IMG/VR virus record: IMGVR_UViG_3300050821_006746
Coordinates: 1 to 64,000 of that record
Length of the DNA stretch: 64,000 bases
Reading direction: 5' to 3' (one strand)
Origin: a virus
A program made the translations under genes and the position numbers. This document shows, one piece after another, positions 5,149 to 57,459 of this stretch (position 1 is its first letter; every line of letters starts with the position of its first letter). The notes beneath the pieces are model-generated. The model saw nothing but the letters and a program-made list of their open reading frames with translations. It ran no database searches and was not told the origin of the DNA.

Positions 5149-6258
5149 ATGTTAAAGGGACTTGATTATGTGACTGGTCCTCCCATTGCCGCTATGAAAG
5201 CCGATGGCGTCTCCTTTGTGTGCAGGTACTTGTCAGAAGTTAATGCGTTGACGCAAGTCAAATTGCTCTCTGCCAACGAAGCAAAGACGCTTGGCGCGAA
5301 CGGCATAACCATTGTGAGCAATTATGAATGGTACGGCAACCGAGCGGCAGAAGGCTTTGCCAGTGGCGTAGCAGACGCGCAGATAGCAGCATCTCAGCAT
5401 ACGGCGTGCGGAGGTCCACCGGATAGGCCAATCTACTTCTCAGTGGATTTCGATACAAGCGTAACACCTACCATCATCGATTACTTCAAGGGCATATCGT
5501 CGGTTATCGGATTGCACAGAACAGGCGCATATGGCTCTTATCAAGTAATCAAGGGACTACTCGACGCCAACACTATCACTTGGGGATGGCAAACTTACGC
5601 GTGGTCAGGCGGCGCATGGGAGCCACGAGCGCATATCCAGCAATATAGCAATGGAGTGTCGTTCGCTGGTCAATCAGTGGATTATAACCGATCCATTAAG
5701 GATGACTTCGGCCAATGGATGCCAGGAGGAGGAGAAATATTGTTACAACTTACAGACCCAATGGGCAAGTACTTCACAGCCAGTACGGCGGGTGATCGTT
5801 GGCATTGTGCGAAGACCAACCAAGACATTGCCTATGCACTGCTCGTGTTCTATCGCCAGTACGGCGGTGTGTTCGGCTTGCCCATCTCAGGCGAGATCTA
5901 CCTTCAACAGTACCCAAATGTTGCAATACAATATTGCCAACGCGCTCTCATGGTCTATGACGCCAAACACTCGATTGACTTTCCAGATGGTGCCGGTGAC
6001 TGCTACCTCCTACATCTCGACTCAGGCATAGGACAACAAGCCGTTGCCAAGCCGCTCATTGCCGCTCTACAAACTCAGGTCAACACGCTCACAGCACAAG
6101 TGCAATCCCTGACGAGCGAACTAGCAGCACTCAAAGCACAGCCAACGCCCGATACGAGCGCATTGGATGCACAAATAGCCACGCTCACGACGGAATTGGC
6201 GCAATACAAGCAGGCCATAGCGAGCACGGAGACGGCGTTGGCGGCATTACCCAAATAG
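5149..6258 (+). CDS. Endolysin: DUF1906 (Rv2525c-like) glycoside hydrolase, Chloroflexi-type wall-binding repeat and C-terminal coiled coil
   Basis: FVCRYLS, PIYFSVDFD, GAYG, WQTYAWSGG motifs; FYRQYGGVFGLPISGE...QYCQRA repeat. Confidence 0.85.
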   Translation: MLKGLDYVTGPPIAAMKADGVSFVCRYLSEVNALTQVKLLSANEAKTLGANGITIVSNYEWYGNRAAEGFASGVADAQIAASQHTACGGPPDRPIYFSVDFDTSVTPTIIDYFKGISSVIGLHRTGAYGSYQVIKGLLDANTITWGWQTYAWSGGAWEPRAHIQQYSNGVSFAGQSVDYNRSIKDDFGQWMPGGGEILLQLTDPMGKYFTASTAGDRWHCAKTNQDIAYALLVFYRQYGGVFGLPISGEIYLQQYPNVAIQYCQRALMVYDAKHSIDFPDGAGDCYLLHLDSGIGQQAVAKPLIAALQTQVNTLTAQVQSLTSELAALKAQPTPDTSALDAQIATLTTELAQYKQAIASTETALAALPK

Positions 6259-10642: not shown

Positions 10643-10942
10643 GGTTTGTCTCGCTTTCTTTTTGTACGCACTGTTTAAACTCCGTAAAGCTCTCTTCGCC
10701 CTGACGTTGCACTAAGAAAAGTGTGGCAAGTCTGCGCTCTTCCTGATCCTTAAGCCATTCTTCGGCAAATGGATCATCTTTTAGGCAGATAGTTTTGATG
10801 CGATTGTCCAGCCACTCATAGCGAGTCTCCAGAGCGTTTTTGTGATACTCGTCAGTGATGGCTCCCGCCTCAAGGATCTTCGCGGTCAGATCTTCGCGCT
10901 TCTTGAGCAAAGAAGCCATATGACTTACGTGGCTATACTTAT

Positions 10943-11344
10943 ATGCCAGATATGCTTGCCAGAATGGCGCAAACCCGTGTTCGTTGGCAAAACGAGCAGT
11001 ATGGCGTCGATCAGGAAGAAGTGGAAACGGCGGCACTGGCAAAATATCGGATTAGAGCATCCTTGCCATACCGAAAAGATAAAGAGACACCGGAAGAGCG
11101 ACAATCCCGCGATAACACTGAGAATGCCGCCATACAGGATGCGATGAATGCGCTGCCCTGGCCCGGCATCCCGTTGGCAGAGTTGGCCGAACGGCACCAC
11201 ATCCCGCTCGGAACCCTGTATGCAGCGGTTAACGACAAGATCATCCCTACTCGCAAGGCAGGAAAAACGGTCCTCGTCAACACAAAGGATCGTCAGTGGG
11301 TAGAGTGGTTGGCTCGCTATAATGCTAGGCGTCGGCGCAAATAA
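10943..11344 (+). CDS. DNA-binding protein with C-terminal excisionase-like HTH
   Basis: LAELAERHHIPLGTLYAAVNDKIIPTRKAGKTVLV. Confidence 0.7.
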   Translation: MPDMLARMAQTRVRWQNEQYGVDQEEVETAALAKYRIRASLPYRKDKETPEERQSRDNTENAAIQDAMNALPWPGIPLAELAERHHIPLGTLYAAVNDKIIPTRKAGKTVLVNTKDRQWVEWLARYNARRRRK

Positions 11345-12417: not shown

Positions 12418-14224
12418 CTATCCGTAGAGATTAGCGTGCAATTTTCCTAGCATCTCCTCGATAGTGGTTCCCATGTGGCTATAGAGCCAGCCACGACGCG
12501 TCACGAAGTACAAACGCTCAATATTGCTACCCTCAGAGTAGAATGGCGCATGGCTAAACCTGAAAAACGCAACCATATCAAAACCAAGTTTAGCCCGATA
12601 CTCCTCGATATATTGCGTGAGAAGAGCGATACATGGTGCCATCTCTTCCTCTGCCCACTCACCCTCAAAGATCCATTGCGTGCGGTCTTCGCCTCCTGGC
12701 AAGTGACCTTTGGTGTCTGTTTGTGTCACTACTTATTCTCCCGTCTTTCTTGCCATACCTTCATAGGTGTATTCTGACTTACGGCCAGAGGTATAATGTT
12801 CCCATGCAACACCAGCAGCGACTTGATCGTTGTACCAATATTGATGTTGACCATTTGCGGCAGCCCTCAATCGTTTTTCAATACCATTCATGTCGAAGCG
12901 GATGTAAACGCGCCGACCTGAGCGGTCATACCTGTACCCAGGTGGAAGTTGAGGAACCTCTCTCATTGCTTATTCCTCCTCCTCAACAACTTTCCACTCA
13001 CCATCCACAAGCTTGTTCCGATCCCGCATGCGCACGAAATGCGCACCCGACGTGTTCGTATCTCATCCACAGGGGTATCCTTTTCTGCGAGCAGTCGCTT
13101 GCTGGTTAGCTTGCTTGAGCCAGCATGTGATGCAGATCTGCTGGCCCGTTGGGGGCGTCGTAAAGAACTTCTTGCGACATACTTCGCATCTCCAATGAGG
13201 TTTAAAAATTTTCATAGCATCTCCTTTTTGTATCGGCTAACTTGTGCCAACTAGTCCTTTTTATGGATGAGTCAACCAAAAATCTCGGAGGACCTTCCTC
13301 CTCTGGCGTGATAATCATTTCACGGTCGATATCAATGAGGTTTATCCCGCTTACCTTTTTCCATCTTCTACCTGTAGGTGTGCGTAGGACGCCAATCAGC
13401 GGCGTTGTATCGTCAAGGCTATCTGCATAGCCGACAACCTTTGCATCCACCTCCTGGCCTTTGTGGCGAATGCGTAGCACGTCGCCTAGCTCATATTCCC
13501 AGGATCGCGTTGCTCTCCCTCCAACGGATGCCAGGTGCGACCTGGCATCCTGCTATGTGTGCTACTGAACCAGAACACGCCGCTCATTGCACTTGTCGTA
13601 TAAAGCGTCAAGGAACAAGTTTAGCAAATGCTCATTATTGGCGCGCTCAAAGCAAATGATTGCAGCGGGATCATCCTTGAACAAATCGCACTGACGTAGC
13701 TTATCAGCAATCGCTTTGCCGATCTCAGGCACGCTCATTGCAGGATCATTGATGTACTGCTTAATGTAAATGCGTGCATTCCAACTGAGAATGGGCCCGG
13801 TTGGCTCTGCCATCTCGTCTAGCAGATCGAATACGTTGTCGTGAATGCTCATTGTTGTTCTCCTCTCAGGCAGGCCAGCGAGTACCAGCCTGCCATATAC
13901 GCGCTACTAGGGCAAATCGTCACTATCTAAGAATGGGTCAAAGTTGTCTCCACTAACGATGGTTACTGGACTGCGCGTCTCTTGATCCGCCTTGAACGTC
14001 GCAACAGCCTTAATTAGCGTCTCGAATGCCGATTGTGAAAGCGTGATGGTTGCACCGCCTTGATCGGCAATGACCATTTGACCATGAGAATCGATCAATG
14101 CTGTCTGGAATGTCACACGAGCAGAGGCTTCAAACTCATCTCGCTCGTCAGATAAGCCTGCTTGCAAGAGCACAAGGCGATCATAATGGCGCTCAGCAAG
14201 GATTGTACCGGGTTCGAGGTTCAT
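12418..14224 (-). other. Chain of small hypothetical genes (12418-12729, 12733-12966, 13202-13480, 13562-13852, 13907-14224 and small Zn-finger ORFs)
   Basis: Co-oriented ORFs with GGAG/GAGG RBSs downstream of the SSAP. Confidence 0.7.
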
Positions 14225-18204: not shown

Positions 18205-18351
18205 CCAACGCTTACGATCACCCCTGCTGCTTCGACAACAGAAGTATGCTCAGTATAGCATATCTGACAATGATAATCATTATTATATGAGCGCTTGCTC
18301 AAATATACCATACTTGATACAATCGCGCCAATGATTCTAGGGAGCCGAAAA

Positions 18352-19155
18352 ATGGGTATAATCAAGCCACCAATAGAGGTAATTTGCGCTATCTGCCACA
18401 AGCCATTTCTAGCAAAACCATACAACACGCCTAAATGTTGCTCTTCTGCATGTACACACGAACTCCGAAGCCAGATAACCCATAGGCGTGTAGGATATGC
18501 AAAACAAGTTACTCTGACTTGTCCGGATTGTGGCAACGATTTTTCGCTAAGTGCGTCACAGAAAAACCAACGACGTTGTCCAGAATGCATAAGTAAAGCC
18601 AAACTGGCCTGGCAACCAATCCAAACAGAGACTCAGGTGGAGGCAATAGAACAACCCATAGAATCTTCCTGTTGGAGAAAAGACCCGATCAATCACAAGA
18701 GGACTGATAGTATTTTGATCAAGCATCCACTTGCGCCCCTCTCTCAATACAGAAAAAGGAACGCCCAAAAGTCCGTGTACGACCTTTGGGCTTCTGGCTA
18801 TAACTTTGGCCAGATAGCAAAGATTTATAAAGTTTATCGCTACCAAGTTTCCGATGAATATTACCACGAAGTTGATAATCTAACTCAAATGGCCCAATCT
18901 ATGCACAATGATCTATTGCAAAGAATAGATGTTGTTAGCGCATTGCCACCCCAAGAAAGAAAAGCGAGAAACCCAACTCCTCACTCACTCGCAAAAGAAA
19001 AAATGAAGTCCGAAGCCATTAGGCTCCACGCAGAAGGTTTGTCTAGTTATAAAATCGCAGATATGCTTGGCAAACCGGCCAAAACAGTTCAGGGATGGCT
19101 CAAAAAAGAACAAAGGCCAAACGATCGCGCCATTGGCAACATGTGGGCGTGGTGA
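18352..19155 (+). CDS. Zn-finger plus two-HTH protein
   Basis: CAIC..CCSSAC, CPDC..CPEC; GLSSYKIADMLGKPAKTVQGWL. Confidence 0.7.
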   Translation: MGIIKPPIEVICAICHKPFLAKPYNTPKCCSSACTHELRSQITHRRVGYAKQVTLTCPDCGNDFSLSASQKNQRRCPECISKAKLAWQPIQTETQVEAIEQPIESSCWRKDPINHKRTDSILIKHPLAPLSQYRKRNAQKSVYDLWASGYNFGQIAKIYKVYRYQVSDEYYHEVDNLTQMAQSMHNDLLQRIDVVSALPPQERKARNPTPHSLAKEKMKSEAIRLHAEGLSSYKIADMLGKPAKTVQGWLKKEQRPNDRAIGNMWAW

Positions 19156-21151: not shown

Positions 21152-21421
21152 TTAAGTTTGGCTCTTCGGCTTCTGCTTTGTCCATTGGATCTCCTTCTCC
21201 ATTTGCTCAATCCTTGTCAGTAATTGCCTACGCTCACCCTCATCGCTCAGCATGGCCGTCAGAGAGCGCGCATGACCAATCTTCTGCGCATTGTCCCTCT
21301 GTCGTATTTGCTCTTCTAGCCGTGCCCATCGTGAGCGGATGCGTTTGCTTTTGCGCCATGCCAAGAGCAGCGTAAGAATGACAGCAACCGCGTATATCAA
21401 GATAAACCAATCTATTTGCAC
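21152..21421 (-). CDS. Small single-TM protein
   Basis: N-terminal TM plus basic coiled coil. Confidence 0.6.
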   Translation of the reverse strand: MQIDWFILIYAVAVILTLLLAWRKSKRIRSRWARLEEQIRQRDNAQKIGHARSLTAMLSDEGERRQLLTRIEQMEKEIQWTKQKPKSQT

Positions 21422-21710
21422 GATTTTCCTCGATTTGAAATACTACGATCTAGAATAACACATTGAGCAATGTATGGTTATCGCGATATTCGTATCAAGC
21501 AATAACCCACCAAAATAACAACAAAACACTCCAGTGATTTTGGCAATGGATCTGCCTTTAACGAGAATCAAAGAAGAAGTTCAATGATCGCAATAACTAG
21601 CAAGGCAACCTTCACATCATAGCCTCTTGTGCGTATTTTTCTAAACACTTTGCCTCTCGCCTTTCGGGAGGTGATTACCCGAAGATAATCACCTCCAACC
21701 TGTCGGTTTA

Positions 21711-22898
21711 CTACTCGTTTACCAAGCGCAATGCCGGAATGTTGGGATCGGTTTTCCTGTCGGAACTCGACAGGTTCCTTAACCATTGGATCAGCGAAGA
21801 AATCAGGATCAACTCTTTATTGTTTGGGGTAACTTTTAAGTCTCCCCGTTTCAAAGCGTTGTTTATCTTCGCGGTTCCTAGCCCGGTATACTGAGTTATC
21901 GTCTCGACATTGGCCGACTTTACTCCGCTTTTTAACCAGAGGATGCATTTTTCTCCGTAGGCTTGTAGTGCGGTGTCTTCCGATTGATTGACTGATCGAT
22001 GCAACTCAGCATAGCCTTTTTGCGTTTCCGTTAGCAGGCTTTTTAAGCTCTCGATTTCATCGTTTTTCGCGTCGATCGTTGAGAGCAAACTTTCCTTTTC
22101 TTGGGAGGCAAACGCCAAGATGCTTGCCTTTTCACTGGTTAATGTGGCGATCAATCTGTCTTTTTCCACGCGCAACTCTGTCAATAACTTGTCTTTTTCC
22201 GTGTTCAATGCCGTTAAGGATGCTTGCATATCCGCTTTCAAACCTGCAAGCAAACCATCCTTTTCCGCCAATCTTTCGCGTTCCTGTGGCTTACCCAAAA
22301 AGAAGAAAATCAACGATCCAAACGCAAAGATAAAAGCACTATCAGCACGCAAGATAACGAAGAATGTTGGCATAGTGAAGCTAACATTTGCTACGCTGCA
22401 ACTGATGGTAATAAAGTCCATGAGCAGAAATGTTACCGCAGGTATCCCAAAAACGATGGCCCACAATCGAGACCAGAATCCACCTGTCTTCCACATTTTG
22501 ATATGACCAACGGTTTGCACGACTGCCAGTCCAACGATAAAAATGGGCAAGGCTACATATGCAGTTGTTGCCAGGTACGTGATATACGTTGCTGTATCTT
22601 CGCTCATATAGCGCAAGATCAACTCGTGAACGTTGGCATTTACACTCATCCAGAAGGACGCCATGAGAAAGATTAAATCGCTTGCTGTTCCTGCACTTAG
22701 AATCAGCCAATAGACGAGCGCCTTTGTCCACTCCCAGGAATACAGGATGCGTGCAAGGGAAGCAATGACATTCCCGATCCGATCCATCAGTTTGGGTTGC
22801 ATTGCTGGAACCGAGATCGCTGGTGCATTACCCTTGCCAAACCAGCCGCGCTTTTTCTTTGGCTGGCTAGAGATAATGATTTCTTTTTGCTCTACCAT
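21711..22898 (-). CDS. 4-TM, coiled-coil, C-terminal HTH protein (SpdB2/DUF2637-like architecture)
   Basis: Four TM helices, 11-aa EKD-type repeats, NVETITQYTGLGTAKINNALKRG. Confidence 0.6.
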   Translation of the reverse strand: MVEQKEIIISSQPKKKRGWFGKGNAPAISVPAMQPKLMDRIGNVIASLARILYSWEWTKALVYWLILSAGTASDLIFLMASFWMSVNANVHELILRYMSEDTATYITYLATTAYVALPIFIVGLAVVQTVGHIKMWKTGGFWSRLWAIVFGIPAVTFLLMDFITISCSVANVSFTMPTFFVILRADSAFIFAFGSLIFFFLGKPQERERLAEKDGLLAGLKADMQASLTALNTEKDKLLTELRVEKDRLIATLTSEKASILAFASQEKESLLSTIDAKNDEIESLKSLLTETQKGYAELHRSVNQSEDTALQAYGEKCILWLKSGVKSANVETITQYTGLGTAKINNALKRGDLKVTPNNKELILISSLIQWLRNLSSSDRKTDPNIPALRLVNE

Positions 22899-23035
22899 GA
22901 TAAGTCCTCCATAATCGCAATAATTTCTGTATCTTTAGGTGCTTCGGTGGGTGAGTCGGTGACATTCAGACGAGCTATTTTCCTCATGTTTACGCTCAAT
23001 TTTGTTACACGAGGGGCACCCACCGACCGACTCAC

Positions 23036-24643
23036 CTATTTACCCATCGACTTTTCAGCCATAGCTTTGAGATCGTCGAGTAAATCCCGTGCCTTATTCT
23101 CTCCACACTCAAAGCCTTGCTGAACCAGCCTGTCACGCAATGAATAACGAGAGAGCTTGCCTCCAACACTTACAACCTCGTTCCATATCGCCAATGCATC
23201 ATTAATGGTTGGCTCTGGCTTCTGCTCAGGAATGGCAATCTTGGGCATCTCTGGTATTCTCGCTTGCCTGTTTGTGGTTGCGTATACAGGCGTTCTACGA
23301 CTCGCTAACCGCTGCCTATGCTGATCGTAGCCACTCATACGCACATGTTGCCGTTGGGTTACAGGAAGCATCTCTGTGTGTCTCTCCTCGCGTGGCGTGG
23401 GACTAATCATATAATCCATCAGCTCGTCTTCTTCGCCACCGCCATATTCCTCAATTAGTCCTCGAATGTCGTTACTCGTCACATGCGGGATGCTGACAAG
23501 AATAGCATGCACCAGTGGACCACCGTCAAGAATGGCATAACCCGCGCAATCTTCGCCTGAGATCAGATGCAAGAGGTTTTTGATGGCATCAAACTCAATC
23601 CCAAGCATACTCGCCTGACGGTCTCCAGACTGGAAAGCATACTTGACACTCATAATATCCCTGGCAGATGACCCACCATCCCCAAACAGCGCAGCAGGCA
23701 TCGTCTGACCAGCGATAATCACGCGTATCTTGAGCTTTGCACCTTCAGCAATGAGAGAAAGCATCGTATCAGCCACTAAATCACGATCATCTTTGCGTTT
23801 CTTGAGGCGTACCATCAAAGCAACAAACTCATCTACAATATACAGGATTTCGCGTGTTTCTTCCCATTGCTGAATAGCCGCGCTCTCGCCCTTCTTCGCT
23901 CGTTTGTGCAGTGCATTGCGGCGGTCTCGCTCGTTTTGTATCCACTGGCAATCAGCGATCATTTCTTCTGGTTGATCGAAGATGGTAAAGTATGTGCCCA
24001 TTTCACTCGACACATCACCGTGTAAATCCCATCCTCGAATGATAGATCCGCGCATAACCGCCTGAGCCACATGGAACCGTAGGCAACTCGTCTTGCCTGA
24101 GCGTGGTAAACCGATAAGAGCGACGTTGACCGACTGCACAAAGGGAATACCTGAGATAAAGTGCTTGCCATCGAAGCCAAGAATATCGCGCTCAGGTGCA
24201 ATCAGATGCCTCATCTGAGCGAATGTCGGGCTACGCTGTGGGAGCATGCTCGTTGGCAGCGTGGGCTTCGGCTGTAATTCCTCCATTGCCTCATCCCCTT
24301 GTGTAACTGGCAATGGTTGTGCTTGTCCTGTTGTTACACAAGACTGATCGACTTCTTTGGGCATAGGTCGTGATGCCCTTCTTTTACTCACCCACCGTTT
24401 AGCGGCACGAAATCCTGGACCCAAGTACTTGGCGACTTTGGCATACTCTTCTGGTGTGCCATGACCCTCCAAAACGAGCAATGCTATCGTAACAAGACCG
24501 CCTGCAAACAAACCGGCAGGACCATGTGAAGCCAGGCCAATAAATGACCCACTAACACCAGCAGTACCCGTTACCACAATGGTTTTTCGCTTTGCTACAA
24601 TGCCATCAGCCTCTTTTGCATCATTTTGCTGAACCTCTTGCAT
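23036..24643 (-). CDS. FtsK/SpoIIIE-family (TraB-like) membrane ATPase
   Basis: N-terminal TMs, Walker A GLPRSGKT, Walker B LYIVDEF, IIAGQ motif, probable C-terminal wHTH. Confidence 0.8.
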   Translation of the reverse strand: MQEVQQNDAKEADGIVAKRKTIVVTGTAGVSGSFIGLASHGPAGLFAGGLVTIALLVLEGHGTPEEYAKVAKYLGPGFRAAKRWVSKRRASRPMPKEVDQSCVTTGQAQPLPVTQGDEAMEELQPKPTLPTSMLPQRSPTFAQMRHLIAPERDILGFDGKHFISGIPFVQSVNVALIGLPRSGKTSCLRFHVAQAVMRGSIIRGWDLHGDVSSEMGTYFTIFDQPEEMIADCQWIQNERDRRNALHKRAKKGESAAIQQWEETREILYIVDEFVALMVRLKKRKDDRDLVADTMLSLIAEGAKLKIRVIIAGQTMPAALFGDGGSSARDIMSVKYAFQSGDRQASMLGIEFDAIKNLLHLISGEDCAGYAILDGGPLVHAILVSIPHVTSNDIRGLIEEYGGGEEDELMDYMISPTPREERHTEMLPVTQRQHVRMSGYDQHRQRLASRRTPVYATTNRQARIPEMPKIAIPEQKPEPTINDALAIWNEVVSVGGKLSRYSLRDRLVQQGFECGENKARDLLDDLKAMAEKSMGK

Positions 24644-24661
24644 GGTCCTCTCCTTTCCTCA

Positions 24662-25213
24662 CTAGTGATGTATCCAAGCAACAATACCCTTGATAACGAT
24701 AAGATAAAGTGCGTAATACAACAGGCCAAAAGCCATCATAAACACGATGAGCGTAAAGCCAATTTGTTGCCATCCATTTGCTCCACCATTTGCTTGGTAG
24801 TCGGACACTGAGTCAAGCAGCATAATACCAAGACTGCACGCAATACAAATCCAACTTGCAACCCGATTATGCTTAAGTGTCGAGAACACCAATCCAGTGG
24901 AGAAGAAGAATTGCACAACCTCCATTCCCCAAGCATAGGTAAATGACTCTGCCTGCATACCAACCATATTGCCCTGGAAAAAGTCTATTGGCTGCATTAA
25001 TACACTGAAATGTGGCGCGATACTAACCACTAACGACGCGCCGTGAATAAACCATGACTCGCTCGTGGTCAGTTGTACAGTAACACCCCACAAGGCAAAA
25101 AACAGAAGGAGCACGCCTAGCAAGATAGCCCCTAGCGGGTGGTCGTGCATGGCACCGCTCCTTGTGGCCGGTGTCCCTGATCCTGCCCCTGTTGCCGTTC
25201 CTGCTCCGCTCAT
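24662..25213 (-). CDS. 4-TM membrane protein (Spd-like)
   Basis: Four hydrophobic helices; directly upstream of the FtsK-like gene. Confidence 0.7.
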   Translation of the reverse strand: MSGAGTATGAGSGTPATRSGAMHDHPLGAILLGVLLLFFALWGVTVQLTTSESWFIHGASLVVSIAPHFSVLMQPIDFFQGNMVGMQAESFTYAWGMEVVQFFFSTGLVFSTLKHNRVASWICIACSLGIMLLDSVSDYQANGGANGWQQIGFTLIVFMMAFGLLYYALYLIVIKGIVAWIHH

Positions 25214-25415
25214 TGCACTGCCTCCACAGGATATTCAACAATCACCATCTGCTCGTCGCCAATAACCACATCCTTACGTGGCTGCAATGGCTCTATACAA
25301 TAGCGCGGATCGTCCCCCTCCCACCCTTCGCGTATTCGCTCTGTACTTGTGGCTTGTTCGTCTGCCATATCGAGACTCCTCTTTCTATTGCCCTACCTGC
25401 ATCGTTCTACAGGTA

Positions 25416-25471
25416 GGGACTCACTCACTCTCCTCTACCTTCATCAGCTCAGCAGAGTGAGTGAGTCCCTC
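25416..25471. repeat. 17-bp inverted repeat of ACTC units
   Basis: AGGGACTCACTCACTCT / AGAGTGAGTGAGTCCCT. Confidence 0.75.
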
Positions 25472-25678
25472 ATTCAATTGCGCCCATCGCTGAGCACTCC
25501 TACAATTCCTCGTCTTCTGTCTCATGCGCCTGTTTCCACTCAGCAACCTGTGCGGCAAACGCTACCATAAATGGCGGCCATTGTAGCCACCCGTCCTGTT
25601 GGCACTCCTCCCATGTGCCGATTCATTGCTTGTTCTACTCCTCTCTTAGATCGTCTAGACGTAACCCATGCCGTCTGA

Positions 25679-27037
25679 TCAGGATTGCCGAACCTGGGCG
25701 AGAATAAAGGACATCTCCGCCTCAAAGTAATGCTGATGAGCCTTATCAACGGCACGCCGGTCTGATTCAAGTGTCTCCTGTCCACCTACTACTGCGTATC
25801 CTTTCTCAACCATCATCTGATGAGAAGTTAGAGTATCCAATGCGCGAACATAGGTAATATAAAGCTCAGCAACTTGTGCGTCTGTAACTTCTGGTTTGCT
25901 CATTATTCGCTACTCCTCACTTTGCTTTAATCCAGTACTGACCACTGTCCCTCAAGATAGGCAATCTGACGACTCCAATAATCTCTGCTTTTATCGTCTG
26001 TTGCCTGTTCATATCCCTCTTGCGCGAGACCCAAGTCTTCTGCGATGTTTGCCGCCTCCCGGACGCTTGCCTCTAGTGGCGTATCCCCTTCTGTCAGAGA
26101 AGCTTGCAGCCATTGGCGTTCATCGCGCTTGCCATGCTCATATGCGTCTTCGTGCTGTCTGCTCATTCGCTAAAATCCTCCTCATGCCTTACGCACCTTC
26201 ATACCCACGCAAAGCCCACAAATGCCATCATCCGTCACAAAGTAATACTCATCAATCTGAGCAGGCAAATGAGGCTTATGCAATCCAATGGTTGCCTGCT
26301 CGTGATATCCGCACCATATTGCGCATCGTCTAGAGCATATCTGCCCGTTGTGTTGCTAGGGACTAACGCATAAATTTGATCGTCGCTCATTCGCACTACT
26401 CCTCGCTTGCATAATAATCTTGCACGAATTGCCTGCACTGCTCATACGAGTACTCACTTTGTGCATTGTGCAGGTTGAGCGGCGTGAGTGTCATGAAACC
26501 TAGCTCGTTCAGCACATACTTTGCTGTGTCAGTTAAGAACTCGCACATCTCTTCTTCTGTTTGTTGCTCCATTTGCTTGCTACTCTCCTTCTTCGAGTAC
26601 AGGGCACCGCTTTACTGACTTTGGGTGAGTTTCCCCACATTCGGTACAATCGTAGTAGTTCTCTGCCAGGTCGCGGATTTCTTCTCGTTTCGCGTCCAGG
26701 GCTTTAACGAGATCCCATGCGGCTGCTGGTGAGATCTCCAGATTGATGTATGGTCCGGTAAAGCCGCCTGAGATCGTCACGCTATACGCCCCGCTTCGAT
26801 CAATCGTAACCTCCATTCGCACTACTCCTCCACAATCCGATAAAAAGTCGAGGAAGCGTGACATCGCCAGCCTTCATAGCTCGCGATCCAAGTCTCATCC
26901 CCGTTCTTGAATCGCGTGATCTCTTCGAGTTCGCCTATCACGTCGTATCCTCGCCTCTCGCTCTCATCGAGGAAAAGAACACGCTTTCCGATACGCGGAT
27001 CTTCTTCTAGCAGTTGTCCTTGCTCTATTTTGCTCAT
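25679..27037 (-). other. Array of small genes (25679-25903, 25927-26166, 26235-26390, 26580-26816, 26822-27037 and others)
   Basis: Most are preceded by a GAGGAGTAG..GAATG junction. Confidence 0.7.
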
Positions 27038-27088
27038 TCGTGCTACTCCTCTCGCTGTTCAACTGTCTCCGTAGAACGCAATTTCATG

Positions 27089-27121
27089 TTTTCAAATGCT
27101 ATACTCACTATCATTTGAAAA
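27089..27121. promoter_or_regulatory. Divergent promoter region with 10-bp inverted repeat
   Basis: TTTTCAAATG / CATTTGAAAA around the extended -10 TGCTATACT. Confidence 0.65.
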
Positions 27122-27133
27122 TGAGGTATATAA

Positions 27134-27733
27134 ATGCAATATCCCATCCCGCCATATCCCGAATATCACCCGATCCAACCCAAACGCTCTGCCTGGCAAC
27201 GCTTCCGCTCACTTGGTTGTGCCAAGCAGTCATTGTTCGGCTGCCTATCACTCATTATCGTTTTCGGTGCAATCCTCTGTGCCATCGGTACACCAGCGTT
27301 TGTACAAGGCTGGCAGGTGGTATCTGCTACCGAGACCGCTACTGTAGCGCGAGTTGTAGTGACACCATCCACTCAGGCGAGCATTCGCCCTCGCATGGGT
27401 GGCCCGCTGGATGATTTCGTAGCCACCTATGGCCAACCGACAGCAACCGCACCAGATAGCGAAACCTTCCTGAGCACCGATAAGCTTGTACGCATCACGG
27501 CCTATGTGACCGCTGGAACCACTATCGTGGATCGTGTCTACGTGACGGGTCCATCCACATGGAATGCCACCGATGATTACGCGTTTTGCCTGCAACTATT
27601 ACCCGATGATGCCCAGGAGTTCCAGCGCAACGTTGGGCCAATCAACTGGCTTGACTACCATAGCAGCATGGGCGAAATAGTCATGCAGTTGCAGGTGCCC
27701 ACGTGCTTGTTGTTTGTTAGCCCACCGTCTTAG
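27134..27733 (+). CDS. Single-TM exported protein (superinfection/entry exclusion candidate)
   Basis: TM LFGCLSLIIVFGAILCAIG, Thr-rich linker, MGGPLDDFVATYG domain; own promoter and terminator. Confidence 0.6.
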   Translation: MQYPIPPYPEYHPIQPKRSAWQRFRSLGCAKQSLFGCLSLIIVFGAILCAIGTPAFVQGWQVVSATETATVARVVVTPSTQASIRPRMGGPLDDFVATYGQPTATAPDSETFLSTDKLVRITAYVTAGTTIVDRVYVTGPSTWNATDDYAFCLQLLPDDAQEFQRNVGPINWLDYHSSMGEIVMQLQVPTCLLFVSPPS

Positions 27734-27798
27734 TGCTTCATCTCACAGTGGAGCAGAGCGCAACGCTCTGCTCCACACCGTACAATAAGCGAGACAAG

Positions 27799-28473
27799 CT
27801 AGTCCTTTGCCAAATCCCGAAATTTTAATGTTCGCCTCGGCCTTTGAAGCGATTTAATAAGTGCTTTTTTCAATCGCTTCTGTTCTAATGCCAATACTTT
27901 GGCTAATCGTTTTGCCTGAACATATTCTGCAAAGCCATCGAATACTTCTTGTGGAAGCGTATCTATCAAATAACGAAACACCAATTGAAGCATTTTGGGA
28001 TCACGGCCAATAACACCATTGAAATGGTTAATAAGCATTTCCAGCCGATCTACTTGAGAAGATTCAAGGTAAATCGTAATTTTGAGCGCCCCCTCTGAGA
28101 AAAGATCGCTATGTTCACGTTTTCCATGCTGATTATGAACATAATTCGTAAGATACGGACCGGCATAAATTTCTTGAATACACTCCACTTCATAAGCAAG
28201 CGCTTCGTCTTCATCGCTTGTTTCAAGTATTTTTGCCTTATCAACCTGCATGCCCTTTGCCCATATCGAACAGATAGCAACACACTTGGCACACCTACAC
28301 CCTTTTTCGGCTTCGATTTCGTGGGCATCCATACGACCAGCAGTGCCCTTACCTACATAGAAGATTACACCGCTTAAATCCGTGCCATTATCAGCAATAA
28401 AGCCTTGTGGATACGCATATCGATAGGTATAGTACTTTTTCTCATCCATAGAAATTATGCTCCATATAGGCAC
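27799..28473 (-). CDS. GIY-YIG (LEM3-like) nuclease-domain protein
   Basis: YYTYRY...FYVGKG..RMDAHE...EALAYE...LTN. Confidence 0.75.
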   Translation of the reverse strand: MPIWSIISMDEKKYYTYRYAYPQGFIADNGTDLSGVIFYVGKGTAGRMDAHEIEAEKGCRCAKCVAICSIWAKGMQVDKAKILETSDEDEALAYEVECIQEIYAGPYLTNYVHNQHGKREHSDLFSEGALKITIYLESSQVDRLEMLINHFNGVIGRDPKMLQLVFRYLIDTLPQEVFDGFAEYVQAKRLAKVLALEQKRLKKALIKSLQRPRRTLKFRDLAKD

Positions 28474-28569
28474 AAAGCCACTTCAGTGATATTATCTAAA
28501 GGTTCACACAACGAAAAGTTACAATTTTCGCTGCGAAGAATGGAGGCTAGCTACGTCCTAGCCTCTGGC

Positions 28570-29301
28570 CTATTTCCAGTGGTCTGGATGGTAACGATAT
28601 GTCAATCGAAACTGAGGGCCGACAAGGACAAGCTTGTTGAACATTATGGCAGTACCATCTGCCGATGTGCTCTTACGCCGAATTTCAAAAACCGGCTCTG
28701 TCCTTGCTATTTTTAGTGATTTTCGCTCTTCACCAGTTGGGAACCGCGTAATCACCTCATCCTCTGTTGTCTCGATAAACACCCCATGTTTCGCCTTGAT
28801 GGCACTAAGAACATCCATATCCTTATTAGCGCGCATGGCTTCAACAAACTCTCCAGCAAGAGACGCTGGGTACCAATTCTCTGCAATGCGAAGAGGCTGA
28901 TCGTCGGCGCTCTGTAATCTCATGCGATGGACCACACGCAAACCAGAGGATTGTTTAAAGATCTGAGCTAAATCTGGCGGCAATTCCTCGATGGTCGGAT
29001 CAATAAGGTTTTCCATGATTGGCTTTAATCCATGATCCGATAGGTACTTGTCAAATGTTGGCGTAATACCCGGCAAATCCAATAATGGATAGTTAACCGT
29101 CAAGTACTTCCCTTTCTCTCTGATATATCCCTCAGAGCGAAGGTACTGTATAACGTAATACACAGTGTTGCGCGCTACATTCCATCTTTCGGCCAGTTCT
29201 GCTGTTGTTGGAATACGGCCAGAACCGGCATGACCATAAACGCCGCTAACGATCTCTTTCCGCAACTGAGAGGCTAATTCCTCCGTGCGGTCATTTGCCA
29301 T
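28570..29301 (-). CDS. GntR/HutC-family regulator with UTRA domain (KorSA-like)
   Basis: RIPTTAELAERWNVARNTV..LRSEGYI wHTH plus UTRA; RBS GGAGGTG. Confidence 0.9.
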   Translation of the reverse strand: MANDRTEELASQLRKEIVSGVYGHAGSGRIPTTAELAERWNVARNTVYYVIQYLRSEGYIREKGKYLTVNYPLLDLPGITPTFDKYLSDHGLKPIMENLIDPTIEELPPDLAQIFKQSSGLRVVHRMRLQSADDQPLRIAENWYPASLAGEFVEAMRANKDMDVLSAIKAKHGVFIETTEDEVITRFPTGEERKSLKIARTEPVFEIRRKSTSADGTAIMFNKLVLVGPQFRLTYRYHPDHWK

Positions 29302-29314
29302 AAACACCTCCTTC

Positions 29315-29374
29315 GTCCTATACATTTTTACATAGGACAATTATGATTATAGACCACAAATTATCCTATGTCAA
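29315..29374 (-). promoter_or_regulatory. Consensus promoter of the GntR gene with ATAGGAC operators
   Basis: TTGACA-N17-TATAAT; GTCCTAT (29315), ATAGGAC (29332), ATCCTAT (29363). Confidence 0.85.
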
Positions 29375-29488
29375 CCTTTTGCTCTATCTGGCTTTATCTC
29401 TTTGACATACCACACTGCGTAATGGCAACATAATCATGTTCCTACTTGAACAGTAGCAGAACATGATTATGATAAGGAGAGTGCGAGT

Positions 29489-30472
29489 ATGGCAAGAGTC
29501 TATGTGATCTGCAACACGAAAGGTGGAGTTTTTAAGACCACGAATACAGCGCAGCTTGGCTATGGATGTGCTAAACGTGGATACAAAGTGGCGATACTGA
29601 GCATGGATGCTCAATGCAATGTGGACTATTCCCTCCTGGGATACATTGAAGATGAGGAAGAGCTAGATGATGGGGCACTACAACAGTTCCAAGAAGAGTT
29701 TAAGGAGTTTGATGATGAGTATGTGTTGGAAGCAGAGGCAGAAATTGTAGATGAAGACGAAGAAGAGGAAAAGCCATATCCAGGCTTAGGTATCCCCACA
29801 CTTTACGATGTCATTATTGGCATCAATGGAGACCAGCGAAAAAAGCGTCCCATTCGAGATGTGATTGTGCAAATTCCACAACAACCAAATCTCTTCATTG
29901 CAAAAGGATCAATTGCGCTCTCAGACATGGATATCAATCTCTCTGCCGTAAGCGGGCGTGAAAAAATTCTCAAGCGTGCAATCGAATCCATTCAGGACGA
30001 GTTTGATATCATCCTGATTGACACGCCGCCAACGCTTGGGCTAGCACCTGTCAATGCCTTTGTTGCCGCTGGTAGCCGAAAAAACACTAAAGACAATCGC
30101 ATTAATGGCGTGATTATTGCTATTTCTCCACAGATCTATAGTGTTTTAGGAATCAGAATTTTGATGGGTGCATTTATTCAGTTGCGAACACAGTTAGAAA
30201 TACCACTTCCTATTTTCGGCGTCATTTGCGCTAACGTCAAAAGAACAAAAAACGCAAAGAAGCGCATGCAGCAAGTTCGAGGATTCTTTGGTAATGCTGT
30301 TTTTAAGACGACAATCCCACAAAACGAAAAAGTGGAGGAAGCAGCCGATACGCAGTTACCCTTAACTCAGTTTGCTCCCAACAGTGCAGGCGCAAAGGCA
30401 TACGACACGCTAACAGAGGAGTTTCTGAGGCGGGCTGGTCTTCCGCTTGCAAAGGAGGGAAGCAATGCCTAG
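29489..30472 (+). CDS. parA: ParA/Soj-family ATPase with acidic insertion
   Basis: KGGVFKTT, MDAQCN, ILIDTPP, C-terminal GAKAYDTLTEE. Confidence 0.9.
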   Translation: MARVYVICNTKGGVFKTTNTAQLGYGCAKRGYKVAILSMDAQCNVDYSLLGYIEDEEELDDGALQQFQEEFKEFDDEYVLEAEAEIVDEDEEEEKPYPGLGIPTLYDVIIGINGDQRKKRPIRDVIVQIPQQPNLFIAKGSIALSDMDINLSAVSGREKILKRAIESIQDEFDIILIDTPPTLGLAPVNAFVAAGSRKNTKDNRINGVIIAISPQIYSVLGIRILMGAFIQLRTQLEIPLPIFGVICANVKRTKNAKKRMQQVRGFFGNAVFKTTIPQNEKVEEAADTQLPLTQFAPNSAGAKAYDTLTEEFLRRAGLPLAKEGSNA

Positions 30473-30911
30473 TAATCCGCTTGGCAACAAGCCAAAGCGC
30501 GCACTCTATCAAAACACCGATGCACCAGAGCAAGAACTTGTTACAGAGGAGAAACAAACCGAAGTGAAGCAAGAAACAATACAAATCAAGCCAGAGGAAA
30601 GCGCAATACCAATACGCACAGAGCAACCACCGATACAGATAGCGTTAACCTGGCAGCGAGCTGGCCAACCATCATCCCACGACCGTAGAAGCAAAGTTCC
30701 ATTCAACGATCGCTACTCCAAAGATAACATCATGGTAGACAAACGCCTAGAGCCTTACTACCTCCACTATCTTGCGCAATGCAGATCGAAGGTAGAGGGA
30801 TCAAACGCAATGTTGCTAGAATTTCTTATCTCGAAGGGCTATCCGATTGATCCTCATCTTCTCGATAGAGCGTTTACACCAGAGGACGTACCACACCCAC
30901 CAAAGGAATAA
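30465..30911 (+). CDS. Putative centromere-binding partner of ParA (type Ib-like)
   Basis: Overlaps the parA stop; disordered N-terminus and a small C-terminal domain. Confidence 0.55.
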   Translation: MPSNPLGNKPKRALYQNTDAPEQELVTEEKQTEVKQETIQIKPEESAIPIRTEQPPIQIALTWQRAGQPSSHDRRSKVPFNDRYSKDNIMVDKRLEPYYLHYLAQCRSKVEGSNAMLLEFLISKGYPIDPHLLDRAFTPEDVPHPPKE

Positions 30912-30921
30912 CCCAAACCCT

Positions 30922-30950
30922 AGAGGCTACTGATATGTACAGTAGCCTCT
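30922..30950. terminator. Hairpin after the par operon
   Basis: AGAGGCTACTG / CAGTAGCCTCT. Confidence 0.7.
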
Positions 30951-30982
30951 CACTATATGCTGATAGCCTCCTAATGTTTATC

Positions 30983-31140
30983 TTATCAGTAACTCATAAG
31001 AAGCAAGTCAGTTGCTTATGAGTTACTGATAATTTGCTCATATGGACCTACTGTACATCTTATTCTCTGCTTATCAGCAACTAACTACATGGTCATGAGA
31101 ACTACATGAGTTACTAATCAGTTGAACATCAGTAGGTTAT
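30983..31140. repeat. parS-like repeat cluster
   Basis: 18-bp IR TTATCAGTAACTCATAAG / CTTATGAGTTACTGATAA plus further ATCAG and ATGAGTTA copies. Confidence 0.6.
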
Positions 31141-55173: not shown

Positions 55174-55800
55174 ATGTACGAGAAATCTTACCAAGCCTGG
55201 AAAGAGTTTAAGGAAAAGCTCTATGGAAAATCTAAGGAGCAATTCGAGGATGCAACGCCAGAAGAAAAGCGGGCGTTGCTAGACAAGATGAATGCTTCTG
55301 ACGATGAACAGATACAGCAGAAAGAGATAGAGCTAAATGAGCTATTTAGCAAAATGCAAGATCTTACTCAGGAAATAGCTCGTTTAACGGAATATTCAAC
55401 AGGACATCAAGTTAGGATCATTCAACACGCCACAAGTGCTCTCAATAATTTTGTTCGCAATGGCATCCCCGATATGTTCCATTTTCCACGAGAAGACATG
55501 GACAAAATTATTCGCGCCATAGAGCAGGATCGTCGTACTCAGGCGCAAAGAGAAACGCTTGAGGGAATGCCGTATGATGCCTATCTGAAAACAGAGGCAT
55601 GGCAAATAAGGCGTTCACAGGCTCTCAAAGACGCCAAGAATAGGTGTCAGTTATGTTACAGTACAAAACTTCTCAATGTCCACCACAAGACCTATGAGCG
55701 GCGCGGACACGAACTGCCAGAGGATTTGATTGTACTCTGCAACGATTGTCACGCAAAACATCACGACAAAATTGGCAAAAAGAATTCATGGAATTTTTAG
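55174..55800 (+). CDS. HNH endonuclease-domain protein
   Basis: YLKTEAW..CQLC..LNVHHKTY..DLIVLCNDCHAKHH. Confidence 0.85.
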   Translation: MYEKSYQAWKEFKEKLYGKSKEQFEDATPEEKRALLDKMNASDDEQIQQKEIELNELFSKMQDLTQEIARLTEYSTGHQVRIIQHATSALNNFVRNGIPDMFHFPREDMDKIIRAIEQDRRTQAQRETLEGMPYDAYLKTEAWQIRRSQALKDAKNRCQLCYSTKLLNVHHKTYERRGHELPEDLIVLCNDCHAKHHDKIGKKNSWNF

Positions 55801-55818: not shown

Positions 55819-57459
55819 ATGATGGCAAACGCAGTTAGCCCACAGGATGAGCAGAAGATCAGCGAAAAGCAAAACACACCCTGGCGTGTGAAATTTACCT
55901 GCGACAAGAAAAACCCATCCTATCAAGAAATCCGCAAGGATCTTTTTGTTGCCTGTTGGGGCAATGCCAAGATGGTAGAGGTGCTATTTCACTTCCTGAA
56001 TACTGGTAGTTGGAAAGCGCATCACAACCACATGGACGAAAACACACGTGTGATTGTCCTCCAAGAAAAGCACTCTGAGATTTTAGCTAAAGTTAAACTT
56101 AAAGTCTCAGAGCCTACGCTTATCACATTCCTCAAGATGTTTGCTCAAGTTGGCTATGTTCGCAAAGCAGCCCGCAAGGGAGCACAAGAGATCAACTTTG
56201 AGGCCGTAGAGAAAGCATTCACAAACCCGCCTGAGAAGCCGGTTATCAGCAAGGATTTAAACTTAAATTTAAGTTTAAATAGTGAGCGGTCAAATGAGGT
56301 GGATAACCTACGTCAAGAGGTCGTCAATTTGCGCGAACAAGTGCAGGATTTAAGTTTAACTTTAGTTGGATTTAAGTCACTGTACGCTCAATTTGAGCAC
56401 GAATTTAAGTTTAACTTTAGCTCGCGAACTAAAGAATTTAACTTAAATGAATCGCCTGAGAGCACACAGGAAGCCAGCTCAGACCCACTTTTTTTTCCTA
56501 AGAATCCTTCTTTAGATATAAGAGATAGAGAAGAAGATGAAGAGAGTAAGAAGGACGATTGCGCTATCGCGCCGCTCGCACCTACATTTTTCGCTTTGCT
56601 TCCCTGGCTTTGGTCGGATGGGCTGGAAACACCCACAAGGTTACTTGTGGAATTAAACTCCACTATGCCAGTTGGTGAACAACAAAGGCGCTTATGGGCC
56701 ACTGAGCAGTACAAGCAGGAATTAGCTTCTAAAGGTTGCCCTGTGATGGTAGAGATGGTTTCAGAGCCTCCACAGAACGCCATTGATGCTGCTGCTACTC
56801 CTGAGTGGATTCTGGTTCTCATGGAGCCAGCACAACCCAAACAAGTATACGCTTCATATAGCCAGGAGTCACCTACACCCCCAGAGCAAAGTATAAAAGA
56901 TACGGAGGTTGGTGCGGCGCGTGGCTATATGCAAAGTACAGATGCAAATATACCTTCTGAGCAGAATAAGTCCACAAAGCGCACACGTGGCAAGAAAGCA
57001 GAGAAGGTTGAACAGTCAAGCCTCCCTTTTGACAAGGGCATCGCGCTAAACGAGGATGAACAGCGCATTTCTGATTGGTTCTGCAAGTTCTGGTTTATCA
57101 AAATCCCGCCAACAGTAAACGCATTGTACAAAAAACATTGTGGAACTTTAGTGCCTTTTGTCCATTCTTGGGAAGAAATGCAGAGTTTAGAGAAAGTGGC
57201 GCGAGTTTGGTTGCAAAGCCAACTTAAACCAGGGACAAAGGTTGGTGGATTGCATCTAGGTAATTTCACAAACACCAATGTTTTGAATAATTGGCAGCCA
57301 GATTTACCAGACAATATTGTCGCTATCGACTCAAAACAACGATCTGGGGTTGATACCTTTGCGCATGTACCAGCCTTTGGAGGGAAAACCGAAGAGCAAT
57401 TAGATGCTGAGTTGCCGGAGACTCTTGAGTTTCTTCGTGCGAGAGGCATAGCCATCTAG
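55819..57459 (+). CDS. Putative replication initiator
   Basis: N-terminal wHTH-like region, internal iterons, directly upstream of the DnaC-like gene. Confidence 0.65.
   Translation: MMANAVSPQDEQKISEKQNTPWRVKFTCDKKNPSYQEIRKDLFVACWGNAKMVEVLFHFLNTGSWKAHHNHMDENTRVIVLQEKHSEILAKVKLKVSEPTLITFLKMFAQVGYVRKAARKGAQEINFEAVEKAFTNPPEKPVISKDLNLNLSLNSERSNEVDNLRQEVVNLREQVQDLSLTLVGFKSLYAQFEHEFKFNFSSRTKEFNLNESPESTQEASSDPLFFPKNPSLDIRDREEDEESKKDDCAIAPLAPTFFALLPWLWSDGLETPTRLLVELNSTMPVGEQQRRLWATEQYKQELASKGCPVMVEMVSEPPQNAIDAAATPEWILVLMEPAQPKQVYASYSQESPTPPEQSIKDTEVGAARGYMQSTDANIPSEQNKSTKRTRGKKAEKVEQSSLPFDKGIALNEDEQRISDWFCKFWFIKIPPTVNALYKKHCGTLVPFVHSWEEMQSLEKVARVWLQSQLKPGTKVGGLHLGNFTNTNVLNNWQPDLPDNIVAIDSKQRSGVDTFAHVPAFGGKTEEQLDAELPETLEFLRARGIAI
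56087..56450. repeat. Iteron cluster / putative replication origin
   Basis: TTTAAGTTTAACTTTAG at 56349, 56404 and inverted at 56087; 26-bp palindrome at 56255-56280. Confidence 0.75.

Follow-up and report, generated by a model that had tools for sequence, protein, structure and literature searches.

The stretch of DNA analyzed here (the window) comprises bases 1-64000 of a 109,141-bp virus record (IMGVR_UViG_3300050821_006746, designated G000) and contains, within a leftward string of genes, a three-gene module that encodes a predicted membrane-anchored ATPase of the FtsK clade and two polytopic membrane proteins. A first-pass annotation had interpreted this region as a Streptomyces-type TraB/Spd/Kor DNA transfer module, accompanied by a partition system and carried by a tailed phage, and the open reading frames (ORFs) that it described are present at the positions given here. 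The module consists of the following genes:

24662-25213 (-): small membrane protein P0003, 183 amino acids (aa), with four transmembrane (TM) segments (hydrophobic segments 28-46, 55-73, 118-136 and 156-174)
23036-24643 (-): membrane-anchored FtsK-clade P-loop ATPase P0001, 535 aa, assigned from fold, profile and hydrophobicity
21711-22898 (-): polytopic membrane protein P0002, 395 aa, with four TM segments, assigned from hydrophobicity and model

The P0003 gene lies 18 bp upstream of the ATPase gene and the P0002 gene 137 bp downstream of it, and each of the three genes is preceded by a GGAGG-type ribosome-binding site.

The motor protein P0001

The N-terminus of P0001 forms a Gly-rich hydrophobic hairpin (segments 21-39, weak, and 40-58, clear), which is followed by a low-complexity disordered linker, a RecA-type motor (residues ~120-404) and a C-terminal, three-helix domain that resembles a helix-turn-helix (HTH; residues 480-532). 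The Walker A (GLPRSGKT, 178-185) and Walker B (IVDEF, 268-272) motifs are both invariant across the family, and a hydrophobic segment is found ahead of Walker A in 121 of the 156 family members. In the AlphaFold model, which was derived from the family alignment, the per-residue confidence (pLDDT) amounts to 80-97 over residues ~140-310 and to about 90 in the C-terminal domain. This domain is probably a winged HTH (wHTH), as the first-pass annotation had proposed; the HTH-like three-helix arrangement is present in the model and several relatives match winged-HTH Pfam families (HTH_24, IclR, HTH_36, MarR_2 and HTH_5) at some position in their sequence.

A Foldseek ranking for the P0001 model places the pCW3 coupling protein TcpA first (1e-8), with FtsK motors next, followed by EccC/EssC. 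On structural re-alignment of the model core (residues 120-404), the VIA-align Z score was 20.6 for TcpA (rmsd 3.5, 252 aligned, 13-16% identity), 17.9 for the FtsK motor and about 16.7 for EccC/EssC (with domains ranging from 15 to 17), compared with 13.4 for HerA, 10.0 for TrwB, 9.6 for VirB4 and 9.0 for the STIV2 B204 packaging ATPase. By these Z scores, the ATPase does not group with VirB4, HerA or the packaging ATPases, the outcome that would have spoken against the initial interpretation; its modeled fold groups with TcpA, FtsK and EccC, which supports the original FtsK-family assignment and points, at the fold level, to membership of the FtsK clade within the FtsK-HerA superfamily. A look-up in the Atlas returned viral FtsK/SpoIIIE-like proteins as the nearest clusters by features, and among its structural neighbors of P0001 are FtsK-domain proteins of actinomycetes that carry HTH domains of the IclR/MarR type.

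Profile comparisons with hhalign were made between an 89-sequence profile of the P0001 family and single-sequence templates, hence at low resolution, with ~200 motor columns aligned per target. They yielded the E. coli FtsK motor at a probability of 95% (E 5e-8), the TraB-like protein of SLP2 at 92% (E 5e-7) and pIJ101 Tra at 90% (E 1.5e-6); a narrow family profile (A1) left the Tra proteins undetected, their detection being achieved only with the broad profile (A3). Judged from these profiles, the P0001 family is a remote member of the FtsK clade with no demonstrable special affinity for TraB.

There are 16 close relatives of P0001, of which the named ones come from metagenome-assembled genomes (MAGs) of Ktedonobacteraceae, and a profile search of 1.84 billion representatives retrieved 318 P0001-type proteins at E<=1e-3. 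No sequence match was obtained in the PDB with either the single sequence or a 16-sequence profile, nor, by tblastn at E<=1, in 50,697 GenBank phage records and 72,556 PLSDB plasmids. NCBIfam likewise gave no match for P0001 or P0003, and one far below cut-off for P0002.

Membrane partners and conservation of the gene cluster

P0003 also has 16 close relatives, and its homologues are located directly upstream of the ATPase position in three other loci (L008, L012 and L019), making it a candidate membrane partner or recruiter of the motor. The larger partner, P0002, is modeled with one unbroken helix (residues 178-314, roughly 135 residues) that leads into a C-terminal Xis/HTH_17-like domain; HTH_17 is matched by 6 of the 33 P0002 homologues, and the domain resembles mycobacteriophage Pukovnik Xis (probability 0.85-0.92). 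P0002 is on this basis predicted to bind DNA. The length of its coiled coil differs between homologues through EKD-type repeats, as would be expected of a spacer, and 52 P0002-like proteins were found in total. The four TM segments ascribed to the membrane proteins of the operon are thus borne out for P0003 and P0002, but the ORF at the left edge, downstream of the module, departs from this pattern:

21152-21421 (-): 89-aa protein with one TM segment and a charged helix or coiled coil, without a family match

This ORF is only a possible member of the module.

The linkage of an ATPase of this family with a polytopic membrane protein, which had been predicted, is found in four phage records and in every locus examined (L007, L008, L009, L012, L013, L019, L040/41, L043 and L044). 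Six of these loci are arranged as follows:

L008, metagenome contig: four-TM protein, ATPase and a 422-aa TM/coiled-coil/HTH-like protein
L009, metagenome contig: four-TM protein, ATPase and a 333-aa TM/coiled-coil/HTH-like protein
L007, in G001, a 33-kb phage fragment with tail genes common to this phage: 316-aa zinc-ribbon/five-TM protein, 173-aa four-TM protein and ATPase
L012, metagenome contig: gene order as in L007, beside a tyrosine recombinase
L013, in G002, a phage of 327 kb that has terminal repeats and encodes capsid and terminase: four-TM protein of 366 aa, followed directly by an ATPase with 26% identity to P0001
L019, in G003, a 64-kb phage record: GntR homologue (50%), P0003 homologue, 554-aa protein, GIY-YIG homologue and P0002 homologue (43%), in one operon

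The whole cluster from the GntR gene to the P0002 gene therefore recurs in a second phage, G003. The 554-aa protein that occupies the ATPase position there (L019 4927-6591) has N- and C-termini like those of the ATPase family around a P-loop core (GIRRSGKTT, YLDEAQ, ILTQR) that is unmatched by the family profile; such family-like ends on an unmatched core suggest that the motor core was exchanged while the ends were kept, and the motor domain of this protein accordingly appears to have been replaced. In L007 (1566-2516) and L012 (6507-7496), the large membrane partner carries an N-terminal, zinc-ribbon-like CxxC...CxxC segment rather than a C-terminal HTH, and its gene is located upstream of the four-TM gene, not downstream of that for the ATPase. 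A tyrosine recombinase is encoded in all four module-bearing phage records, all of them temperate, and ParA in two of the four.

The named close relatives from Ktedonobacteraceae agree with the host suggested initially, which, judging from these sequences, is probably a mycelium-forming member of the Ktedonobacteria (phylum Chloroflexota). At E<=1e-10, the P0001 family is present in 11 of 151 genomes of a class sample that includes a Ktedonobacteraceae MAG, and in 9 of the 301 genomes of a phylum-wide sample; four of these nine had already been matched in the class sample, and it is to those four that every match below 1e-40 belongs. One copy in genome G017 directly follows, and overlaps, the gene of a 1139-aa protein with an N-terminal prim-pol-type primase (PDB 4e-40), and is itself followed by genes for a four-TM protein of 383 aa and a two-TM protein of 526 aa, while another G017 copy has a three-TM protein on one side and a large serine recombinase on the other. 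A replication gene, an FtsK-like Tra protein, membrane proteins and an integrase occur together in actinomycete integrative and conjugative elements (AICEs), and by analogy the settings in G017 may be called AICE-like. Also in G017 (contig C21; L044 10743-13460), a single reading frame begins with the N-terminus of a large serine recombinase (residues 25-193, resolvase/TP901-1/phiC31-like) and continues into a complete threonine dehydratase (623-893). The element with the ATPase relative may be inserted in or abut ilvA, comparable to the elements that interrupt sporulation genes. The capsid profiles PF05065 and phrog_10 found no match in five Ktedonobacteria genomes that hold relatives, which, as no prophage-positive control genome was included, is weak evidence against a prophage location. 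Scans for tRNA genes in the genomic loci detected one tRNA-Arg, in L045 only.

Regulator, partition locus and carrier phage

Upstream of the module, the leftward string begins with a regulator gene, from which a putative partition locus diverges. The features of this region are:

29327-29374 (-): sigma-70-type promoter, TTGACA-17-TATAAT (12/12 consensus, 29374-29346), overlapped by a 16-nt inverted repeat
28570-29340 (-): GntR/HutC-type regulator with UTRA domain (Pfam UTRA E 5e-18, GntR 2e-5)
27799-28473 (-): GIY-YIG nuclease-like protein (PF22945, 8.5e-9)
29489-30472 (+): ParA-type partition ATPase, transcribed divergently to the GntR gene (AAA_31 4e-28, phrog_164 4e-38)
30447-30911 (+): 154-aa ORF overlapping the ParA stop, without a family match
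30963-31140: related palindromes, with an 18-nt perfect inverted repeat at 30983-31032 and copies at 31070-31082 and 31106-31129

The GntR/UTRA protein, the product of the first gene of the string, shows 26% identity to pIJ101 KorA over 152 aa and is, from its sequence, a candidate repressor analogous to Kor/TraR; the promoter with its inverted repeat (29327-29374) is a candidate autoregulated operator/promoter of the leftward string. A GntR-UTRA regulator had been described as lying just upstream of the module. The regulator is real and is linked to the module in G003 as well, but it is 3.3 kb away, separated from the P0003 gene by the GIY-YIG gene and some eight small ORFs; the GIY-YIG homologue is retained inside the G003 cluster, and in loci other than this phage and G003 no regulator is found near the module. 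Two small ORFs, at 26580-26864 (-) and 13907-14224 (-), have homologues (40% and 44% identity) that are neighbors in L009, immediately downstream of the module there; the 94-aa one ends in CxxC...C.

ParA, the 154-aa ORF as a candidate centromere-binding partner, and the palindrome cluster as a candidate parS together constitute a plausible partition locus. As to a plasmid state of the phage, virion genes, ParA with its partner and parS-like repeats, iterons in a putative initiator gene and a DnaC-like loader speak in its favor, and a tyrosine recombinase gene speaks against it:

G000 72004-73032 (-): tyrosine recombinase (PF00589, 1.6e-22), beyond the window (L014)

Since this recombinase is also present, and ParA is missing from two of the three other phages, the phage-plasmid status that had been proposed is unproven, even with ParA and the parS-like repeats in place. 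Its role may be that of an integrase or, as with Cre, of a dimer resolvase; the 3.5 kb surrounding it contain no tRNA gene.

The carrier itself is a tailed phage, in line with the first description. The record is classed by IMG/VR as having direct terminal repeats, is 100% complete according to CheckV and has 97 bp in common at its two ends. Beyond the window it encodes TerL (phrog_979, 2e-127), a portal, a head protease, an HK97-type major head protein and a head-tail adaptor, followed by several proteins of >1000 aa without a PHROG match. Within the window, a UvrD-type helicase, a DNA methyltransferase, HNH nucleases and a DnaC-like loader are encoded in addition to the lysis gene:

5149-6258: endolysin

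As stated initially, no relaxase or type IV secretion system (T4SS) gene is visible: the complete record gave no match to Pfam Relaxase (PF03432) or the VirB4/TraC-type AAA_10 (PF12846), the only relaxase and T4SS families searched.

Further repeats and mobile genes are distributed over the record. At 56093-56441 of the window, 10-12-mers of the type TTAAACTTAAAT are clustered, in five to six copies, within ORF 55819-57459, which encodes a 546-aa protein without a family match and lies directly upstream of the DnaC-like helicase loader (57474-58430); by analogy with lambda O, the cluster looks like an iteron origin embedded in an initiator gene. A second cluster, of the 8-9-mers AGCGGGAAC / CCCGCTAC at ~42-bp spacing, is found at G000 105933-106186 (L005, about 10933-11186) inside an ORF of 1152 aa (105342-108800), and probably reflects a repeated peptide unit of this large ORF. 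Stand-alone HNH, GIY-YIG and homing-endonuclease-like genes are dispersed over the window (18295-19155, 27799-28473 and 55174-55800) and beyond it (G000 93381-94202).

Comparison with TraB/Spd systems and alternative functions

According to Thoma et al. (2015; PMC4447253), in Streptomyces TraB alone moves double-stranded DNA (dsDNA), and the Spd proteins are diverse membrane proteins, among which SpdB2 is a four-TM, oligomeric, DNA-binding pore former. The phage module resembles the TraB and Spd systems of pSVH1, pIJ101 and SLP2 in several respects: there is one motor only, which is FtsK-like, anchored in the membrane and equipped with a C-terminal HTH; a four-TM polytopic protein about 380-400 aa long is encoded next to it; the cluster includes a gene for a regulator of the GntR/UTRA type; a Pfam Relaxase or VirB4-type AAA_10 match is lacking; the host is mycelial, here a probable one; and ATPase relatives occur beside the replication and integration genes of small integrated elements. 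In SLP2, a SpdB2-like protein of 383 aa with N-terminal TM segments comes before a 539-aa TraB-like protein that has two such segments, a layout strikingly similar to that of the 535-aa ATPase and its 395-aa partner. As modeled, P0001 comprises the anchor, motor and C-terminal HTH of the TraB layout, and P0002 would be, like SpdB2, a four-TM protein of DNA-binding type encoded next to the translocase. A GntR and UTRA gene is linked to the module as in Kil-Kor systems, the repression itself being predicted.

On these grounds we tentatively favor, at somewhat less than an even chance, the interpretation that the module is TraB/Spd-like in function and moves the phage genome as dsDNA within or between hyphae, an analogy of function for which family membership is not demonstrated. 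What the data show are the folds and domain architectures, the linked genes, the phage setting and the connection with Ktedonobacteria; from these we infer the oligomeric state of the motor, its DNA substrate and direction, and the regulation and biological role of the module as follows. P0003, P0001 and P0002 would constitute a membrane-embedded dsDNA translocation apparatus of temperate phages and integrative elements of Ktedonobacteria, in which P0001, an FtsK-clade motor anchored by its N-terminal hairpin, would assemble into a hexameric ring, recognize the element's own DNA through its C-terminal HTH domain and pump dsDNA through the membrane or cross-wall. P0003 and P0002 would be the membrane partners of the motor, one of them recruiting it or forming or gating a channel, and the other acting as a membrane-tethered, DNA-holding arm on a ~20 nm spacer. 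The likeliest use would be to carry the genome of the phage or prophage through cross-walls to neighboring compartments, or to neighboring hyphae, as TraB and Spd achieve for Streptomyces plasmids, with the GntR/UTRA protein at the head of the leftward string keeping the module off until a signal is received, as in kil-kor control. The wider proposal, that Ktedonobacteria own a family of single-motor, relaxase-free dsDNA transfer systems, convergent with or anciently related to TraB/Spd and captured by temperate phages for virion-free spread, is more doubtful, and virion-free spread of this phage is purely conjectural.

Several observations weigh against the favored interpretation. Although the layout and sizes are those of the SLP2 pair, the relation of the motor to the Streptomyces Tra proteins is one of remote homology only (hhalign E 5e-7 to 1.5e-6), and the family profile is no nearer to them than to FtsK, which argues against a specific TraB ancestry. 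Even the FtsK relationship is faint at the level of Pfam, as P0001 scores 13 bits (E 0.068) against FtsK_SpoIIIE (PF01580), for which the gathering cut-off is 24 bits; this family is matched at E<=1e-3 by 2 of 89 P0001 relatives, and a six-frame search of the whole record with it found no match. No Pfam family covers P0001, P0002 or P0003, and the whole-model pLDDT of P0001 is a modest 64, compared with 80-97 in the core.

For the membrane proteins, homology to Streptomyces SpdB, SpdB2 or DUF2637 is undetectable: DUF2637 (PF10935) gave no match in the whole record at E<=10, the P0002 family aligned with the SLP2 SpdB2-like protein and pIJ101 SpdB at hhalign probabilities below 1, and an Atlas search for SpdB2/DUF2637 likeness yielded no usable match. 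Neither is the P0002 family significantly similar, by hhalign, to the four-TM partners of distant relatives (L043 and L013), and all-against-all BLAST of the large membrane partners indicates that their layout is common and their sequence not detectably so. The long coiled coil and Xis-like HTH of P0002 have no counterpart in descriptions of SpdB2. Spd proteins are, however, diverse to the point that the assignment of homologues often fails even between Streptomyces plasmids (PMC4447253), and the missing Spd homology therefore lowers the case for membership more than that for analogy.

The setting differs as well, the carrier being a 109-kb tailed phage and the host phylum probably Chloroflexota, not Actinomycetota, with the host assigned only through named MAG proteins of Ktedonobacteraceae. 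No short direct repeat array resembling clt was found near the operon, although a degenerate or dispersed site would escape such a search, and clusters of 8-10-mers in the 109-kb record are confined to 56.1 kb and 105.9 kb. Finally, FtsK-like genes without a known role are common in Streptomyces phages, some of which have not been shown to be plasmids (bioRxiv 10.1101/2024.02.16.580700, PMC11536984). Such genes (phrog_1358, 'FtsK/SpoIIIE-like') resemble the P0001 gene in being carried by viruses of mycelial hosts, and P0001 matches this family weakly (E 1.7e-5); it has no BLAST-level similarity to any GenBank phage.

The idea of a transfer function on a phage is less new than first supposed and has Streptomyces precedents. 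SpdB2 homologues on actinophages have been proposed to spread phage DNA (PMC4447253), and the Streptomyces plasmid-phage pZL12 combines virion genes, ParA/ParB-type partition and a tra locus in one replicon, its conjugal transfer requiring a major tra gene together with two genes adjacent to it (PMC3583192, PMC4487206); the related pSLE1 carries phage-particle genes and ParA/ParB (PMC4487206). By description, the present phage is like pZL12 in having virion genes, a putative partition locus and a putative transfer locus on one replicon. As the ATPase has no tblastn match in GenBank phages or PLSDB, any relation is remote at best.

The most serious alternative, which we nevertheless regard as unlikely, is a pump for septal segregation in the style of SmeA-SffA, in which a small membrane protein recruits a DNA translocase to Streptomyces sporulation septa (PMC6428758); recruitment of the motor to sporulation or vegetative septa would here serve to clear the prophage (plasmid) genome, or to deliver it, in conjunction with ParA/parS, and so provide each spore or compartment with a copy. 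The pairing of P0003 with an FtsK-clade motor, 18 bp apart, is consistent with such a role, as are the proximity of ParA and parS-like repeats and a family profile that fits FtsK at least as well as Tra. SffA is likewise encoded in an operon with a small membrane protein, and FtsK/SpoIIIE and SmeA-SffA have in common with P0001 the membrane anchor, RecA-type motor and C-terminal DNA-recognition domain. But P0001 is found on phages and integrated elements and is not a core gene as those are, its 535 aa contrast with the 1329 aa of E. coli FtsK, and the host FtsK would normally do the job. Moreover, of the three other phage records with the module, two lack ParA, and the extra membrane-tethered DNA-binding protein and the replication and integration neighbors fit mobile-element transfer better.

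That the module acts at the membrane in the life cycle of the phage or in a conflict (superinfection exclusion, help with genome entry or an anti-phage/anti-plasmid defense with an ATPase of FtsK-HerA type) is distinctly improbable. The module is present in four phage records, all temperate, and the operon is moron-like in position; P0001 has a weak PADLOC match to mad8 (E 7e-6, 24 bits), nSTAND_NTPase5 and HerA DUF87 are touched by 13 and 11 of 89 relatives, respectively, and HerA-type defense complexes are among the structural matches, at Z 10-13. HerA and these complexes are nonetheless exceeded by the FtsK-clade matches by 4-7 Z units, no nuclease, SIR2 or other effector is fused to the ATPase, the GIY-YIG gene is separated from it and not always adjacent in relatives, and no defense family scores convincingly. 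Membership of a defense system was rejected, the mad8 match being all that PADLOC yielded.

That the motor is instead a TcpA-like coupling protein, feeding a conjugation channel encoded elsewhere in a relaxase-dependent mobilization of single-stranded DNA, seems highly improbable. TcpA, the FtsK-like coupling protein of Clostridium perfringens pCW3, is indeed its best structural match (Z 20.6), but the lead over FtsK is about 3 Z units at an identity of 13-16%, Pfam Relaxase and VirB4-type AAA_10 are without a match in this complete phage, and the C-terminal HTH and membrane DNA-binding partner fit the logic of FtsK and TraB. An EssC/EccC-type (type VII-like) ATPase exporting phage or host proteins is scarcely credible: EccC/EssC domains do align at Z 15-17, yet P0001 has one ATPase domain where the matched EccC/EssC entries have several, no WXG100-like substrates or type VII secretion genes were noticed nearby (no family-level search was made), and the ATPase and its partner each carry a domain of DNA-binding type.

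With TraB/Spd-like translocation of the phage genome retained as the favored interpretation, what is new relative to the Streptomyces precedents is the probable host phylum, the three protein families without Pfam coverage, the membrane-tethered partner with coiled coil and Xis-like domain, and a linkage conserved in integrated elements as well as in phages of 64-327 kb. In the literature on Ktedonobacteria, searched in combination with TraB and with phage and mycelium, no title or abstract on DNA transfer or phages of the group was found. About 320 representative ATPases (E<=1e-3) and 52 P0002-like proteins could enter annotation resources for mobile elements.

TraB-type conjugation transports dsDNA by a single FtsK-like motor, without a relaxase or T4SS, and is described, in the literature found, only for Streptomyces. 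The Ktedonobacteria belong to another phylum but have the same mycelial, spore-forming habit, and a comparable gene set in phages and integrated elements of this group, if the proposed function is true, would point to mycelial growth itself as selecting for such DNA movement. The phage would then be a second example, after Streptomyces pZL12, of a virus also able to move as naked DNA, which would bear on models of phage spread and lysogeny in multicellular bacteria.

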